This document shows positions 1,774-10,100 of a stretch of 14,854 nucleotides of DNA, one piece after another (position 1 is the stretch's first letter; each line of letters opens with the position of its first letter). Under the pieces are notes generated by a model, which was not told the origin of the DNA, ran no database searches, and saw only the letters and a list, made by a program, of their open reading frames with translations. This stretch comes from a virus: the UHGV virus genome UHGV-0122456; one strand, written 5' to 3'. The translations under genes and the position numbers were made by a program.

Positions 1774-1892
1774 AGTGCAGTATCTCCCGATTAAGGTTTG
1801 GTTTACGTCGTTTTATCTCGTTTTACTTGATTCAATATTTGATACATCTAGATACTACGATCCAATATTTGATACGTCAACAGGATTAAAAA
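1774..1892. promoter_or_regulatory. Lysis-lysogeny switch region (early/lytic and lysogenic promoters with operator repeats)
   Basis: Intergenic between divergent apl and cI. 13-bp direct repeat CAATATTTGATAC at 1833..1845 and 1863..1875 (30 bp apart), a third GATAC at 1851..1855, and tandem CGTTTTA-type repeats at 1809..1828. Confidence 0.5.
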
Positions 1893-2525
1893 ATGATACA
1901 GGTAAAGGCTGGAGAGAATACAGGGGGAAGAGAGGCTATCCATAGACTAATGGCAGCCTATGATTTCAAGTCCAGACAGCAACTTTGCGATCACTTAGGC
2001 GCATCAAAAAGTACCATGGCAAACAGATACTTAAGAGATAGTTTTCCTGCAGAGTGGGTGATTCAGTGCGCCTTGGAAACAGGAGTTTCTTTACTGTGGC
2101 TAACCACCGGACAGGGGGAGCCAGGTTCAAACATTGAACCCAAAAAAAATATCAATTCCGTGAACTCCAGCAAGGTTATACCTCTTTCTGAACTAGTATC
2201 TCCTGAAATTGACAAGGCGACTCTCAACGGTGGTTTATTGATCGATGCTGGAAAAGCAATCATTGATAGCAGCATACTCCCCTCAAACTCAAGCAACCTA
2301 CTGCTGGTGACTACTTCTGGTGATTCTTATTTAATAGATCGCAACCAAACACCACTAGTAAATGGTATGTGGTTAGTCGATATCGACGGGATAAAAAGCA
2401 TTGTTAAATTGACTCGACTCCCGGGAAACAAATTAGTAGTGCATCAGGATGATTCATCGTTTGAGTGCGGCCTGGATGACATTGAGGTAGTAGGCCGCGC
2501 ACTGAAAATCATTAAGAGCCTTTGA
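1893..2525 (+). CDS. cI: Immunity repressor CI (phage 186 CI family)
   Basis: 210 aa. N-terminal HTH region with NRY..........CALETG..L.WL.TG.GE and C-terminal GMWLVDIDG..SI..LTRLPG.KL......FECG.DDI..VGR match my recollection of 186 CI. Directly upstream of int, as in 186/P2. Confidence 0.85.
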   Translation: MIQVKAGENTGGREAIHRLMAAYDFKSRQQLCDHLGASKSTMANRYLRDSFPAEWVIQCALETGVSLLWLTTGQGEPGSNIEPKKNINSVNSSKVIPLSELVSPEIDKATLNGGLLIDAGKAIIDSSILPSNSSNLLLVTTSGDSYLIDRNQTPLVNGMWLVDIDGIKSIVKLTRLPGNKLVVHQDDSSFECGLDDIEVVGRALKIIKSL

Positions 2526-2526
2526 T

Positions 2527-3555
2527 ATGACCATCAGAAAACAGCCGAACGGAAAATGGTTGTGTGAGTGCTATCCCAATGGACGCAATGGCAAGCGCGT
2601 GCGTAAGCAATTTGCCACGAAAGGCGAAGCCATTGCGTTTGAAAGCTTCACAATGGAAGAAGTGAATAAAAAACCGTGGTTGGGTGAAAAGGATGATCGG
2701 CGACGCCTATCAGAGTTAATTGAGCTTTGGTATTCCCTGTATGGTCAGACACTCGCAGACCCCAAGCGCCTCATGGCGAAACTTAGAATTATCTGTAATG
2801 GTCTAGGCGACCCCATCGCCTCAGAACTGACAGCCGGAGACTTTACGAAATACCGCGAAGCACGGTTAAAAGGTGACCTTCGTAACGAAGACGGCACACT
2901 AATGTCGCCAGTAAAACCACGCACGGTGAATCTTGAGCAACGTAACCTATCATCGGTTTTCGGCACATTGAAAAAACTAGGCCACTGGTCAGCACCAAAT
3001 CCTCTCGTCGGGCTGCCAACATTTAAAATCGCTGAGGGTGAACTAGCATTCCTGACCCCGGAAGAAATTAAACGCCTACTGGATGCCTGTGCTGATTCTC
3101 AGAGTCCCAGTCTGTTGATGATTGCAAAAATATGCCTAGCAACTGGTGCCCGATGGAGTGAAGCAGAAAACCTGCAAGGGCATCAGTTATCAAAATATCG
3201 CATTACTTATACCAAGACCAAAGGTAAAAAAAACCGAACCGTTCCAATATCTCAAGAACTGTATGACGAACTACCTAAAAACAGGGGGAGATTATTTACC
3301 CCATGCAGAAAATCCTTTGAGCGTGCAGTAAAGCGAGCCGGTATCGAACTGCCAGAGGGCCAGTGCACCCACGTACTGCGCCATACATTCGCCAGCCATT
3401 TTATGATGAACGGCGGAAATATACTGGTACTGCGCGATATTCTGGGCCATGCTGATATAAAAATGACGATGGTTTACGCTCACTTTGCCCCTGATCACTT
3501 GGAAGATGCTGTAACAAAAAATCCACTTTACAAATTAGACTGGAAAAAAGCATGA
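2527..3555 (+). CDS. int: Tyrosine integrase (P2/186 Int family)
   Basis: 342 aa. C-terminal catalytic region TGARWSEA ... HVLRHTFASHFMMNGGNILVLRDILGH ... MVYAHFAP with Arg, His-x-x-Arg and Tyr closely resembles P2 Int. Lies next to the att core. Confidence 0.95.
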   Translation: MTIRKQPNGKWLCECYPNGRNGKRVRKQFATKGEAIAFESFTMEEVNKKPWLGEKDDRRRLSELIELWYSLYGQTLADPKRLMAKLRIICNGLGDPIASELTAGDFTKYREARLKGDLRNEDGTLMSPVKPRTVNLEQRNLSSVFGTLKKLGHWSAPNPLVGLPTFKIAEGELAFLTPEEIKRLLDACADSQSPSLLMIAKICLATGARWSEAENLQGHQLSKYRITYTKTKGKKNRTVPISQELYDELPKNRGRLFTPCRKSFERAVKRAGIELPEGQCTHVLRHTFASHFMMNGGNILVLRDILGHADIKMTMVYAHFAPDHLEDAVTKNPLYKLDWKKA

Positions 3556-4535
3556 CCCTTTATTCATCAATTGGCATTATGTTCTATGTTGTAATGTTAA
3601 TATACATATTGTATTTAACATATAAATACAAGTGGTATTTATTAAATGAACAAAACCTTATAAAACAGAAATTATTCTGGTTATCAATCGGAATACCAGT
3701 ATTATCATTCTTTTATTTTGGGATTTTCGCATGGTGGGGCAAGGTCCCGGTGTTAAGTGCCCACGGCTATACTCGCTTTTACGAAATCAGTAAATTCCCT
3801 CTAATGCTGCTAGCCAGTTCAGTACCTCTTGGAGCTATAGTTAAGAATATTCACAGGACCATTCAAACAGAGACGCAGCTTTCAAGGACAGAGCATCAAA
3901 TAGAGCTGGTAAAAGCAAAAAATAAATCTGATTCATTTTATGCCCACCAGAAGAGTTATGCCGATATTTTTAAAACTGTCCCTTCATTTATCGTTAGTAG
4001 AGAGTTTACCGAACACGATGATGGAAAAAAATATATAGAACCTTCCATTTCTCACCCTTATATTCTTTACATGAATATTTTTACAAAATCCTCTATTGAA
4101 GAAGGCTATAGCAAAGAAATAAGTTCATTATTTATGGGTAGAGTTCAAGATTATTATAAGAATATCAACAAAGCTATTAAAAGCTGTTACAACAAAGAGA
4201 CTTCTTATGATATCCAAGTGATTTCCCTTCAAATGCTCGAAATCAATATTATCCAACTTTGCAGAGAATTAGGGATCGACTATCGATATGAAAAACATGA
4301 GTTTATTCTTTTTGACTCCATTGAAGAAAAACCCTTCACCACTTCTTTCTCTGATGAAAAACAAATAAAGCAAATGGTCACTGGATTGCGCGAGCTGTTA
4401 GTTCATGTTTATATGCTGATTGGCTTAAGCCCTGAGGTCTTCCAAACGCCAAAAGGGCTATGGGACTTTATCCCTGACTATGGCAATGATTGCTCTAAGC
4501 TCTACCCAGCAATTCTACCTGCTGATAGGAATTAG
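3552..4535 (+). CDS. AT-rich cargo gene: membrane protein of unknown function (327 aa)
   Basis: ATG at 3552 overlaps the int stop as ATGA. Two to three N-terminal hydrophobic helices (about residues 7-24, 41-62, 82-97) followed by a roughly 230-aa K/E/Y/S-rich soluble domain. DNA is much more AT-rich than the flanking phage genes. No family recognised. Confidence 0.75.
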   Translation: MTLYSSIGIMFYVVMLIYILYLTYKYKWYLLNEQNLIKQKLFWLSIGIPVLSFFYFGIFAWWGKVPVLSAHGYTRFYEISKFPLMLLASSVPLGAIVKNIHRTIQTETQLSRTEHQIELVKAKNKSDSFYAHQKSYADIFKTVPSFIVSREFTEHDDGKKYIEPSISHPYILYMNIFTKSSIEEGYSKEISSLFMGRVQDYYKNINKAIKSCYNKETSYDIQVISLQMLEINIIQLCRELGIDYRYEKHEFILFDSIEEKPFTTSFSDEKQIKQMVTGLRELLVHVYMLIGLSPEVFQTPKGLWDFIPDYGNDCSKLYPAILPADRN

Positions 4536-4651
4536 CAATGGCGACAACTTGGCGGCAGAGCATTAAAAATGTGTAAAACCGACAAAAACAAAATAACACT
4601 AACGTACTGTTTTAAAACATAAATATATGTTTTTATTATAGTCAAAATGGT

Positions 4652-4696
4652 ATGTAGGAATTTCGGACGCGGGTTCAACTCCCGCCAGCTCCACCA
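4652..4696 (+). other. attP core: about 45-bp copy of the 3' end of the tmRNA gene ssrA (tRNA-like T-arm and acceptor CCA end); not a complete RNA gene
   Basis: ATGTAGGAATTTCGGACGCGGGTTCAACTCCCGCCAGCTCCACCA matches the 3' terminus of enterobacterial ssrA as I remember it. No ssrA 5' portion lies upstream; upstream is AT-rich phage DNA. Confidence 0.8.
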
Positions 4697-4706
4697 AATA
4701 AAACAA

Positions 4707-4739
4707 GGGGTTACGTGAAAGCGTAGCCCCTTTTTCTTT
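4707..4739 (+). terminator. Rho-independent terminator just 3' of the att core
   Basis: Stem GGGGTTACG (4707-4715) pairs with CGTAGCCCC (4722-4730), 9 bp with one G-U, loop TGAAAG, then TTTTTCTTT. An A-rich tract upstream makes it potentially bidirectional. Confidence 0.6.
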
Positions 4740-4819
4740 GGTAGTGGCGGCAAAATGGCGACAGGCTTTTGCGTCTTTCTTGCCTGTCGCCCTCTTGAAA
4801 TCATGCAAAGAGGTTTCAC

Positions 4820-5302
4820 ATGGAAGAACTTCACTTTGTTTACATCAATGCAAATGGTCGTATCGGAGTTCACTCAATACAGAGCATCAGTTATAGCGAA
4901 AATCATATACAGGGCATTTGTAAGAACACCGATCGAATAAAAACCTTCCGAAAAGACCGCATTCTTAAACAGTACGATTCACCAGAACAAGCCATTCAGG
5001 AATGCGCGTCATTCCTCCCCGAAAACTACTCACATCTCACTAAGCAGTCTGGTCCGAAAAAAAATACATTCGATGTGTGTTTCACCGGATTTAAGAAAGC
5101 AGATAAAGAAAGATTGGTTGATAAGGCGAATGAACAAGGATTAACGGTAAGAACCTCTGTAACCCAAAGCCTTCAGATGCTCTGTTGCGGTTACAATGCT
5201 GGCCCATCAAAAGTATCGGCAGCCAGGATGAAAGGCACAATCATCATAGATGAGCCTGGCTTTATACATTTTCTTGAAACGGGTGAGATCCCAGATGAAT
5301 AA
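4820..5302 (+). CDS. Small cargo protein with C-terminal BRCT-like domain (160 aa)
   Basis: RBS AAGAGG 7 nt before the ATG. C-terminal about 80 aa (DVCFTGF...RLV...GLTV..SV...L.CCGYNAGPSKVSAARMKGTIIIDEPGFIHFL) follows the pattern of the LigA C-terminal BRCT domain. N-terminal 60-aa domain unassigned. Confidence 0.7.
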   Translation: MEELHFVYINANGRIGVHSIQSISYSENHIQGICKNTDRIKTFRKDRILKQYDSPEQAIQECASFLPENYSHLTKQSGPKKNTFDVCFTGFKKADKERLVDKANEQGLTVRTSVTQSLQMLCCGYNAGPSKVSAARMKGTIIIDEPGFIHFLETGEIPDE

Positions 5303-5330
5303 AAACCTGCCGTAGCAGGTTCTCTTTCTC
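5303..5330. terminator. Bidirectional terminator between the convergent BRCT-like gene and ogr
   Basis: Hairpin ACCTGC-CGTA-GCAGGT (5305-5320), flanked by AAAAA upstream and TCTCTTTCTC downstream. Confidence 0.5.
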
Positions 5331-5547
5331 AAAAATTCATATGCCCCTGACCACCTGGCAATGGATGTGGAGGAGCAGTAGCAATCAGTGCGGGTGTCAC
5401 AATAAACCTGACCACTGTTTCATGGGTAACAAAAGTGCTCCCGCAGTTAATATTTTGGCACTGGCAGTAACGCTCTTTGGTGCTTTCAGTTACTTGAAAA
5501 CTGCTCCTTGTGTGTGCCGCATGACCACACTTTGGACAATTCATCAT
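5329..5547 (-). CDS. ogr: Ogr/B-type zinc-finger late-gene transcriptional activator
   Basis: MMNCPKCGHAAHTRSSF...YCQCQNINCGSTF has the Cys4 motif and about 72-aa length of P2 Ogr. I start it at the internal Met (5547 or 5544), not the 87-aa ORF start at 5592. Confidence 0.85.
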   Translation of the reverse strand: MMNCPKCGHAAHTRSSFQVTESTKERYCQCQNINCGSTFVTHETVVRFIVTPALIATAPPHPLPGGQGHMNF

Positions 5548-5615
5548 ATCCAGATCCCTACCTTTGCTATCAGAATCATTGTAATGATACACATAATATC
5601 AATATTGAGAACACT

Positions 5616-7198: not shown

Positions 7199-10100
7199 GC
7201 GTCGTATCCCCCCTGATCGCTGTAGTTACTCCTGGCTTTTGCCTTCAGCCTGCGTTCACGTTCATCAAGCTGGCGGGCCACCTCCCGCGCAATATCCTGC
7301 GCACTTTGTCCTGGCTGCGTCTGGATGATGATCTGCGTCGGTGCCTCAATCCTGTAAACAGGCGGCACAGTGGCTGCGCGACTCACAATTGCTTCTCCAC
7401 CTTTCGCGGGAAGTGCCAAAGGGTGCAACGGTGGAAGCTCTGCTGGCGCGGCAGCAACGCCCATCATTCCGGCAACAACGGTAGCCAGTGCAGCTGTATT
7501 TCTCCGGCTGGTCACGTTTGCCGGACCGTTAACAATTTCAGGCCCGTTTTCACCGACAATGCCGAACTGCCCGCGCGGGATATAGCCGCCGCTGTCATAC
7601 ATCCCCGCAAATCCATATCCCCATGACGGAAAACCACCCGATGGCATCATCACTTTACCGTCTGCATTCACCGTCGCAGGTTGCTGACGCGTCACACTTT
7701 CCGGCAGTTTCGCCTTTGCAGCCTCTTTACTGACAATGCCGAGCTTCTCCAGCAACCAGGAAACGCCGGATTTCAGGGAGTCCAGCGGATGCATGACCAT
7801 ATTCAGCCCTTCCGCCAGCGCCTCCCCGAATCGTCGCCCCATTGCCGCTGCGCTCTGCAGTTCGGCAGAGGTCGACTTAACGGGCGTCAGCAGATCAGTA
7901 AACCAGCCCCACAACGCCTGCACTTTGTCGCCAATCCACTGAAACACAGGCTTAAGTGGTTCGAATGCTGCACTGACGGGACCTGCCGCCGCTTTGAATC
8001 CTTCCACCACGCCACCGAGAAATGCGGTGATGGGTTGCCAGTATTTCCAGACAACCAGCGCCACACCCGCCAGTGCAGTAACCACAAGACCTATCGGACT
8101 AAGCAGAGCACCTAACAGACCAGATATGGCATACAGGGCAACGCGCAGCATCGCCAGCGGACCAGATGCAAGCACTCGCAGCACCGCGCCTGCGGCTGCC
8201 AGTCCACCGCGCAGTACCGCCAGAGGATTCATAAACATCACAGCAACAGCACGTAAACCGGATAATCCAGACCGCAAAAGTGCAACTGGCGCACCTGCTA
8301 CAGTTTTCAGGACATTTCCCGACAGTGATGCCGTGCGGCGCAAAGACGACAACGGCGCAGTAAGTAAACCTGCGGCGTTGCCCGATGAAGCAAGCCCGCG
8401 TCGCAGCAGTGCCAGTGGAGCGCCAGCTAACCAAGACAACGCTCTGCTGGTTCGTGTTACTGCTGCCGTAACGGAAGGTAACGTTTTGATACCCAGCACA
8501 GAGAATCCCAGACGGATGACTGCCAGCGGCCCCAGCACTGCAGCCAGCGCCACCGCTAAGGTGCCGAGGCCTACGGTAACCGCAGCCACAACAGCCGCTA
8601 CTTTCATCAGTGTGCCTGTCAGTTCCGGGTTAGCTTCCACCCAGCGGCGCAACGCCCCCGTGATGCTTTTCACCGTGTACAGAATATCCATCAGCGGCTG
8701 GCGCAGCGTTTCGCCCAGGCTGCTGAAGGTGTTCTGCGCTCCGGTTTTGACCAGCAACCACTGAGCAGAAAGTGAGTCTTTGTTGATGTCGGATTCTTTC
8801 TGCATGGAACCGAGCGCATCATTGCCCGCTGTCAGTTTTAGCTGGCGCTGCAGTTCCGGAAGGTTGTTTGCCAGTTTCGCCGCGTCATCACCAAACTCTT
8901 TACCAAACAACATGGTCATGGCAGACAGACGCTTGTCCTGCGGCAGTGCGTTCACCTTCTCCAGCACACGCTGGATAGTTCCCATCGCATCCTTCGTCAT
9001 CTGCTTTTCAATCACTTCAGGATTGAGTTTCAGCAGATTCATCCCTTCAAAGAAACTCTTGCTTTGCATGGTGGCAATGGACAATTCACGCACCATCGCG
9101 TTTGCTGCACTGGCTGCAACCTCCGGCGCAGCGCCCAGTGTCAGAAAGGTGGAACCCAGTGCCGCCGCTTTACGATAATCCAGACGGTCAGCCACACCGC
9201 CCAGACGTTGCATCACATCAATGATGTCCGCCCCTTTCGACATGGCGTTATCATCCAGATAGTTCAGCGCATCGCCGAGCTGTTCAATATTGCGGGTAGG
9301 TATTTTGTAGAGCTGGGCGATTTTCCCCAGACTTTCTGACAGTTCATCCGCTGGCAGCTCAAAGGCTGTTGCCGCCTTTGCTGCCGTACTGGCGAAGGCC
9401 AGCAGGTCACGTTTCTGGTCTTCCCAGCTGTCGTCAGGGTTTGCGACGTTCATGCGCGCACCACCTTCAACCAGTGCAGCGAAGTCCACCGCACCGTTTT
9501 CCATCGGCAACTGTTCGCTGGCAGCCTTGATGGCATCCTGCATTTCATAAAAACGTGCAGTGCGGTTGCCATTATCGTCACGCAGACCATTGACCTGCTT
9601 TGCCACGCCTTTCATGGCATCTTCCATGCTGGTATAGCTTTTTACTGCCGCCATCACTGGCGCACCCATTGCCAGCCCTGCAGCCGTGGTAGTGGCTCCG
9701 GCTCCTGCGATGCGATCGCGCACTTCAAGCCGTCTTGAGTATTGATCCCTGACAGCGTTCATCCGTGCCTGTTGTTCACCCAGACGTTTAAGTGCTTTTT
9801 GCTGGCCCTCCAGTGCCTGCCTTGTTTCTTCAGCATTTTTCTTAAGTTCTCGCTGGGCACTACTGAGTTGTCTGGTATCAATCCCTGATTCTTTAAGTGC
9901 CTGACGTTGTCTCTGGACCGCCCCCAACAAGCCGTTATAGGTCTGCTGAAGTTCCTGTACTCGTGTTTTGGCCTGACTGAATAACTTTGCCTGCGCGGCG
10001 GTTGGCCTGTTAGTGGCAGCAAATTGTGTGGCGAGTTTTGCCGCCTCTTCGCGGGCTGCGTTCAGGTTGTTGGCTGTTATGGCTAGTTGCGAGCGCGTCT

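Follow-up and report, generated by a model that had tools for sequence, protein, structure and literature searches.

Introduction

The genome of virus UHGV-0122456 carries, within the stretch of 14,854 nucleotides that was analyzed here (the window), the last part of a bacterial tmRNA gene (ssrA), and directly behind it stands a GC-rich hairpin followed by a run of T residues. An element that inserts into ssrA with such an arrangement would replace the 3' flank of a host gene by its own DNA. The question is therefore which transcript this hairpin ends, that of the phage or that of the host, and whether it arose in the phage or was taken from a host. We have analyzed the folding of the hairpin, its conservation among related loci, its place in the phage attachment site and its occurrence next to complete ssrA genes in bacterial chromosomes.

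Results

The window and its gene order

The whole stretch is a region of a Fels-2/186-like temperate phage (P2/186 family) in attP configuration. The phages closest to it are Cartapus (93%) and 500465-1 (99% over the right arm). Its elements are arranged as cI, int, orf327, P-arm Int sites, core, hairpin, P'-arm Int sites, the BRCT-like gene and the convergent ogr gene (Table 1); beyond ogr the minus strand continues with gpD, gpU and the tape-measure gene. Between the BRCT-like gene and ogr lies a second hairpin that folds at -17.3 kcal/mol on the minus strand versus -10.8 kcal/mol on the plus strand, and by its sequence it reads as a terminator chiefly on the minus strand, for ogr. The orf327 gene is the final plus-strand gene of the cI-int operon ahead of attP, and its slot is variable among relatives. 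In Cartapus it holds a different protein that is annotated as a putative RES/NAD+-binding protein, and in strain 503440 yet another hypothetical protein is found there. Cargo thus varies at this second place as well, and defence or toxin genes may be among it.

Table 1. Features around the attachment site in the window, and distal copies of the hairpin flank in E. coli loci (handles L003, L005 and L249; positions within each locus)
Feature	Position	Strand	Basis or remark
CI repressor	1893-2525	+	
Tyrosine integrase, reads towards attP	2527-3555	+	Pfam Int_N and Phage_integrase
orf327 (327 aa), function unknown	3552-4535	+	no Pfam match; phrog_17460 (unknown function)
P-arm pair of 186-type Int arm-type sites, 11 bp apart	TGGCGACA 4539-4546, TGGCGGCA 4550-4557		direct repeats
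attP core, ssrA (tmRNA) 3' terminal 45 nt, ends CCACCA	4652-4696	+	E. coli ssrA identity
A-rich spacer AATAAAACAA, A-tract partner of the U-run	4697-4706	+	nearly invariant in 29 variants
Predicted terminator hairpin, 12-bp stem, GAAA loop, AAGGGGTTACGT-GAAA-GCGTAGCCCCTT	4705-4732	+	folding, covariation
U-run TTTTTCTTT, predicted release point, 8/9 U	4733-4741	+	sequence
P'-arm pair of 186-type Int arm-type sites	TGGCGGCA 4745-4752, TGGCGACA 4756-4763		direct repeats
Inverted third arm-type copy GCCTGTCGCC	4782-4793		10-bp inverted repeat with 4757-4766
BRCT-like cargo gene (160 aa), co-directional with ssrA	4820-5302	+	phrog_2561 at 2e-77; weak Pfam BRCT
Second hairpin, between convergent BRCT-like gene and ogr	5304-5321	mainly -	fold energy
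ogr/B late activator, convergent with ssrA-direction transcription	5329-5592	-	Pfam Ogr_Delta
Distal copy of the hairpin flank, L003	2487-2562		
Distal copy of the hairpin flank, L005	2501-2555		
Distal copy of the hairpin flank, L249 (K-12 MG1655)	~1838-1910	-	

The hairpin lies inside a complete attP

All 45 nucleotides of 4652-4696 agree with the end of E. coli ssrA, and the segment aligns with the 3' end of the Rfam tmRNA model. A tmRNA gene was found in the window neither by ARAGORN nor by Rfam at the gathering threshold, so that only the 3' fragment is present. Other weak Rfam matches over the hairpin (BjrC68, aspC and others) scored far under their gathering scores and were taken as chance. 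The motif TGGCGRCA occurs in two copies on each side of the core with a spacing of 11 bp (4539-4557 and 4745-4763). Read as the reverse complement, these repeats match the published consensus of 186-type Int arm sites, tgccGCCActt (PMC3448106), as well as YAYCGCCAYTY of the phage 186 record. The locus thus has a core equal to the 3' end of its target, arm repeats on both sides, an adjacent integrase gene and matching attL and attR, whose junctions in lysogens break within 4652-4696. Since the arm repeats flank the core and match the 186-type consensus, 4539-4793 represents a complete attP, in which the hairpin separates the core from the P' arm sites. The AT-rich region 4560-4650 is a candidate for IHF and excisionase (Apl/Cox) sites.

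Some further features of this region were observed. The segment 4751-4797 contains a perfect 10-bp inverted repeat (GGCGACAGGC...GCCTGTCGCC) that is made of arm-type Int sites in opposed orientation, and it is among the most stable local folds of the window (-20.6 kcal/mol). The arm-type site TGGCGGCAG (4550-4558) is complementary to CTCCCGCCA (4679-4687, in the T-arm part of the core) at 8 of 9 positions, which may be chance or a tie between the recognition of arm-type and of core-type sites. In the AT-rich P arm, a promoter-like site (TTTAAA-17-TATTAT, 9/12) at 4611-4639 on the plus strand is aimed into the core and the hairpin; in a lysogen it would face out of the prophage across attR.

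Structure and strength of the hairpin

Positions 4697-4739 read AATAAAACAA GGGGTTACGT GAAA GCGTAGCCCC TTTTTCTTT. The hairpin starts 9-11 nt past the CCA of the 45-nt ssrA fragment, and six of its 12 pairs are G-C and two are G.U. The earlier note on this DNA had described a 9-bp stem (GGGGTTACG / CGTAGCCCC) that begins at the 11th base after CCA, and this stem turned out to be the core of the 12-bp stem at 4705-4732. Its wider claim, that the phage carries a terminator-type hairpin directly 3' of the tmRNA end, agrees with the 12-bp stem and U-run that follow the CCACCA core. The same note had proposed RNA folding of 4690-4745, and this segment is indeed stable, with a free energy of -25.5 kcal/mol (z = -6.3) that none of 200 shuffled sequences equalled. 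The shorter segment 4697-4745 folds at -19.8 kcal/mol (z = -4.5; 0/200 shuffles as good).

In a scan of the window, 4705-4732 was the best terminator-like match. When about 14,800 segments of 40 nt were sampled from both strands (mean -6.5, sd 3.7), the hairpin came out among the top 12. As we read this list, none of the other 11 is both intergenic and followed by a T-run. Generic terminator-like matches occur in the window at about chance level (17 found, 14.5 expected); hence it is the strength and the placement of this hairpin that count. Taken together, there is a GC-rich stem with a short loop, an adjoining U-tract, a position downstream of a co-oriented unit and a pairing under selection, as in Rho-independent terminators.

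Conservation points to a signal in plus-strand RNA

The GTDB species genomes and IMG/VR were scanned with the 26-mer of the ssrA 3' end, and the resulting loci, at least 240 (at least 120 from GTDB and at least 120 viral), are samples. Among the matches listed, a hairpin-type flank follows 36 of 241 core occurrences, which gives 29 distinct sequences with the window's own included. The named records among these variants are Enterobacter, Franconibacter, Raoultella, Xenorhabdus and Photorhabdus, the remainder being viral contigs. Over the 29 variants the 12-bp helix is 99.4% paired, a value reached by none of 500 shuffles, and sliding the 3' partner cuts the pairing to 33-66%. Four pairs have undergone compensatory change, for example from A-U to G-C or from G-C to A-U. 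Spacer and T-run are nearly invariant: the T residues at 4731-4732, which close the stem, and at 4733, the first of the run, are the same in all variants, and positions 4734-4735 are T in at least 90%.

One stem pair is U.G in 23 of the 29 variants and would be a C.A mismatch on the opposite strand. The hairpin alone folds at -19.2 kcal/mol on the plus strand versus -12.8 kcal/mol on the minus strand. Because of the conserved U.G pair and the weaker minus-strand fold, selection appears to act on plus-strand RNA and not on a DNA cruciform or a minus-strand signal. A role as bidirectional terminator for ogr or late read-through was considered as well; the minus-strand fold is less stable and has C.A mismatches, the separate hairpin at 5304-5321 reads as the ogr terminator, and we keep this role as a minor possibility.

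The module of core, 10-nt spacer and hairpin is common to phages with P2-type (GTCCAC...) and with 186-type (GGCGRCA) P' arms, as seen when six loci were compared with 4652-4741 of the window. Being shared across both arm types, the module seems to follow the ssrA target and not the arm specificity of the integrase or the operon.

Host ssrA is joined to the hairpin in lysogens

That the 5' part of host ssrA would join this phage arm upon integration had been predicted, and chromosomes bear it out. The attL of the prophage is seen in E. coli S88, where smpB and full ssrA are followed by spacer and hairpin, BRCT gene, ogr and D. With a junction query made up of 100 nt from ssrA and the 62-nt flank (coverage at least 80%), full ssrA was found to run into the hairpin flank in 230 of 5426 complete E. 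coli genomes (about 4%). A matching attR, composed of the phage left arm, the core and the next element, is present in strain 33-6. In strain 503440 an attP-like arrangement was observed inside the chromosome (2,470,629-2,479,091), 36 kb from the ssrA-hairpin junction. The most likely explanation is a tandem of two related P2-like prophages at ssrA, and in the second copy both the BRCT-like gene and ogr carry frameshifts.

In a lysogen, the last 45 nt of the tmRNA gene, its trailer and its terminator are hence all viral DNA. The proposal that this altered 3' context could affect tmRNA processing or levels meets the difficulty that E. coli offers no clear native reference. A direct junction of ssrA with the tested candidate empty-site flank, which now lies on the ypjC side, occurs in none of the 5426 E. 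coli genomes, and the flank of K-12 belongs to the element CP4-57. A native ssrA 3' context may therefore not exist in E. coli. For pre-tmRNA, RNase E has been reported to cut at CCA/A/A/AUU (slashes mark the cuts), followed by exonucleolytic trimming (PMC5291269). The phage flank keeps an AU-rich stretch straight after CCA (CCA-AAUAAAA; CCA-AAUAAAACAA) that resembles these mapped sites, and the spacer at 4697-4706 is a candidate region for RNase E-type cleavage of the pre-tmRNA trailer. Nothing in the sequence suggests a disruption of tmRNA processing or level. The precursor trailer is predicted to be about 40-45 nt long, compared to about 80 nt with the K-12/CP4-57 flank, which offers an easy experimental handle. 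This is relevant for mapping tmRNA precursors and for comparing tmRNA levels between strains. Judging from the phage records, a virally terminated ssrA is also to be expected in Fels-2 lysogens of Salmonella.

Copies of the hairpin flank at the far end of ssrA islands

In 769 E. coli genomes the 62 bp of 4697-4758 recur at 95-97% identity. About 540 of the 769 have this copy not beside ssrA but at the far end of the array of ssrA islands, where a short degenerate core precedes it and ypjC and ileY follow. Such distal copies are seen in strain 165, strain 2013C-4830 and K-12 MG1655. In K-12 MG1655 the order is ssrA, CP4-57, degenerate core, the flank of a second element class, degenerate core, hairpin copy and ypjC, and the hairpin copy has an A.C mismatch in its stem. 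The distal core of CP4-57 (CGCCAGC-CCACCA) is followed by the flank of the other class of ssrA element (ATCATGATTGGACGG..., about 7330-7402 of the K-12 locus, minus strand). With this other-class flank behind the CP4-57 core, K-12 must carry at least three stacked layers at ssrA. Excision of CP4-57 would give ssrA a flank with the first terminator about 125 nt away.

A variable cargo slot behind the hairpin

A ribosome-binding site (AAGAGG) stands 6 nt ahead of the ATG of the BRCT-like gene. No sigma-70-like promoter was recognized between hairpin and gene; the best candidate matches at 8 of 12 positions and has its -10 element over the start codon. The motif of P2 late promoters, TGT-N12-ACA, is likewise absent from the 80 nt after the terminator, upstream of the gene. 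Without a recognizable promoter, the BRCT-like gene would therefore be transcribed either by read-through of the hairpin or from a promoter of unrecognized type.

The slot between the P' arm and ogr (4820-5302 in the window) was seen to be variable when five further loci were compared. It may hold the BRCT-like gene (phrog_2561), ORFs with a hydrophobic N-terminus, ORFs of 240-288 aa, an ORF of 257 aa on the opposite strand, or nothing. The ORFs with hydrophobic N-terminus possibly encode secreted proteins or lipoproteins. The hairpin itself is conserved whether co-directional cargo, opposite-strand cargo or ogr comes next.

Discussion

Probably one terminator with two uses

In our view 4705-4741 is probably (with a probability of about 0.8) a Rho-independent terminator in the P' arm of a Fels-2/186-type attP, which would end the cI-int operon of the phage and later the host ssrA gene. 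What we observed directly is the structure of the hairpin, how it is conserved and biased to one strand, where it lies in attP, and that it is joined to ssrA in lysogens. Termination and its efficiency, as well as the processing steps and the 3' end of the pre-tmRNA in lysogens, we infer from the sequence. The earlier note had missed that an operon of the phage itself, cI-int-orf327, is situated upstream of the hairpin as well. The scan of the window detected no other plus-strand terminator-like site between the stop of orf327 (4535) and the hairpin, and the positional counterpart of the hairpin in phage 186 is annotated as a predicted operon terminator. The simplest reading is therefore a single terminator that is used twice. 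In the free or circular phage the hairpin would stop plus-strand transcription coming from the lysogenic operon cI-int-orf327. After integration it would stop transcription of the strongly expressed host ssrA, the downstream DNA of which would have been displaced to the far end of the prophage. RNase E-type cleavage within the AAUAAAACAA spacer would then shorten the pre-tmRNA trailer, and trimming would bring it back to CCA. At the same time, the terminator would block ssrA transcription from entering the cargo slot, and from running antisense into ogr and the tail genes.

Could the ssrA role be incidental to the terminator of the int operon, as the sequence cannot separate both roles? A hairpin serving the lysogenic (cI-int) operon only, with the stop of ssrA transcription as an unselected by-product, would fit the annotation in the phage 186 record, where the geometry is identical, and the lack of a further terminator-like site downstream of orf327. 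However, integration parts the hairpin from int and joins it to ssrA, and it must therefore meet ssrA transcription all through lysogeny. The common occurrence of the module in phages of 186-type and P2-type arms, where it follows the ssrA target, and a spacing that resembles presumed native ssrA terminators speak against this reading too, and we hold it to be unlikely. Highly improbable is a retroregulator in the manner of lambda sib. The lambda sib element lies across att from int. In this model, transcripts that read through would form an extended helix (CCACCAAA...UUUGGU), which would be cut by RNase III and destabilize the int mRNA as long as int and hairpin are linked. The position of the hairpin across att from int is the same as that of sib, and the window sequence can lengthen the stem by about 10 pairs. 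Yet this extension is not conserved over the 29 variants: the outer helix is 73% paired, its three outermost pairs form in less than 50% of the variants, there is no covariation, and shuffled sequences do equally well.

The distal copies in E. coli bear on the origin of the terminator. If the hairpin were the ancestral terminator of host ssrA that was captured by a phage, the distal copy would be the original host flank, and the 62-bp match does sit exactly where a displaced native terminator would be expected. An equivalent displacement has been documented for tRNA-Asn and ICEKp1 (PMC13023037). Against such a host origin, which we consider quite unlikely, the 62-bp homology does not stop at the T-run but also takes in the first P' arm site and one half of the second (GGTAGTGGCAGCAAAATGG), and the arm motif recurs in the P arm of the phage and matches the 186-type consensus. 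Moreover, arm-type sites of 186- or P2-type come after the hairpin in 36 of 36 sampled loci by our reading, computed for part of them. Because the homology enters the arm sites and the sampled hairpins all precede arm-type sites, the distal copy is most likely the scar of an old Fels-2-like prophage. An empty site was found neither in the 5426 E. coli genomes nor among the GTDB loci listed; with no ssrA-hairpin-ypjC arrangement in the E. coli genomes, a native origin could not be shown. The cargo slot raises a different issue, namely the purpose of the terminator. The earlier note had assigned to the hairpin the insulation of the BRCT-like gene from read-through. This cannot be the reason why it exists, because it is equally conserved in relatives with and without the cargo gene, including Fels-2. 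In the relatives with ogr next to the arm sites, what it would prevent is antisense transcription of ogr and the tail operon. The BRCT-like gene may even depend on read-through instead of being shielded from it, and the lack of an evident promoter suggests that some transcription must pass the hairpin. One may thus think of a leaky gate, in which a small fixed fraction of the strong ssrA transcription passes and drives promoter-less cargo in the P' slot, specifically in lysogens. This is compatible with a terminator that is used twice and differs from it in purpose. The ribosome-binding site without a sigma-70-like or TGT-N12-ACA promoter would fit, as would the fact that the slot cargo is often co-directional with ssrA (the BRCT-like gene, the candidates with hydrophobic N-terminus and the ORFs of 240-288 aa). 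There is also a precedent in S. pyogenes M1UK, where 0.25-0.35% read-through of the ssrA terminator sets the level of the speA toxin (PMC9951164). We nevertheless think that a leaky gate is somewhat unlikely, since the hairpin looks strong (12 bp, GNRA loop, 8/9 U) and is just as conserved when no cargo gene follows, some cargo ORFs are on the opposite strand, and weak or non-sigma-70 promoters are possible for the BRCT-like gene. Were it true, integration itself would switch on the slot genes at a level set by terminator leakage, and the first gene behind a tRNA- or tmRNA-targeting attP would be a general slot for lysogeny-specific expression.

The terminator with two uses thus remains our preferred reading. 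The hairpin is an ordinary, family-wide part of the Fels-2/186-type attP, and its counterpart in the type phage has already been annotated as terminator. The result tidies the anatomy of these phages and does not call for a new mechanism.

Comparison with known systems

The closest parallel is found in phage 186 (NC_001317). In its record, positions 20930-20957 are labelled "predicted terminator of lysogenic operon", and the truncated tRNA-Ile core and arm-type sites for Int lie next to them. As in the window, int is followed by an extra ORF, a tRNA- or tmRNA-derived core in the direction of int, a hairpin with U-run, P' repeats and a convergent B/ogr gene. The consensus of the arm-type sites is the same (YAYCGCCAYTY / tgccGCCActt), and the B gene, the homologue of ogr, has its own annotated terminator tB, comparable to the hairpin at 5304-5321. 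There are also clear differences. Phage 186 targets ileY instead of ssrA, its hairpin (AGGCCACTCTCTCGAGTGGCCTTTTTG) is unrelated in sequence and starts 26 nt after CCA with an IHF footprint in the gap, compared to 9-11 nt in the window, and in the window, unlike in phage 186, a cargo gene separates the arm sites from ogr. Fels-2 (NC_010463) is closer in sequence, with an identical core, the AATAAAACAA spacer, the hairpin GGGGTTACGTGAAAACGTAGCCCC, a T-run and the GGTAGTGGCGGCAAAATGGCGACAG arm sites. However, ogr follows directly and the BRCT-like cargo is missing. The Fels-2 record marks only the attP halves and leaves the hairpin unannotated. Fels-2 and SopE-phi, of the Felsduovirus type, have been described to integrate at ssrA without mutating its 3' end (PMC10107115 Table 1; PMC3448106).

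The P4-type island CP4-57 of K-12 likewise replaces the 3' flank of ssrA and brings a terminator (GCCCGCA...TGCGGGCTTTTTT), and flanks of this type are found at ssrA in K-12 and in 998 of 5426 E. coli genomes. In contrast to the window, this terminator is located about 45-60 nt after CCA, behind another hairpin, and the integrase belongs to a different family. The distal core of CP4-57 has a 1-nt deletion, so that excision mutates ssrA, unlike in P2-type phages (PMC10107115). In the sampled loci, elements of other ssrA-integrating classes likewise have a terminator no more than about 130 nt from CCA, and in three further classes it lies about 121-129 nt after CCA. With these three classes having their terminator some 125 nt away, close placement is not obligatory. 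In the flank groups that occur in genomes only and that we take as native (Vibrio, Photobacterium and Pseudidiomarina records), the terminator is 6-13 nt after CCA, and the class of the window thus reproduces this close spacing.

A terminator between a strongly transcribed host tRNA or tmRNA gene and the first gene of an element integrated beside or into it, which sets how much transcription enters the element, is known from two further systems. In S. pyogenes M1UK the toxin level is set by the sub-percent share of transcription that passes the ssrA terminator into the prophage gene speA (PMC9951164); unlike the phage of the window, the S. pyogenes phage inserts between two host terminators. 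With ICEKp1, integration displaces the terminator of tRNA-Asn, and read-through into the int gene of the element has been demonstrated (PMC13023037). There, the host terminator is moved away and weak stem-loops only remain, whereas the phage of the window brings a predicted full-strength terminator of its own.
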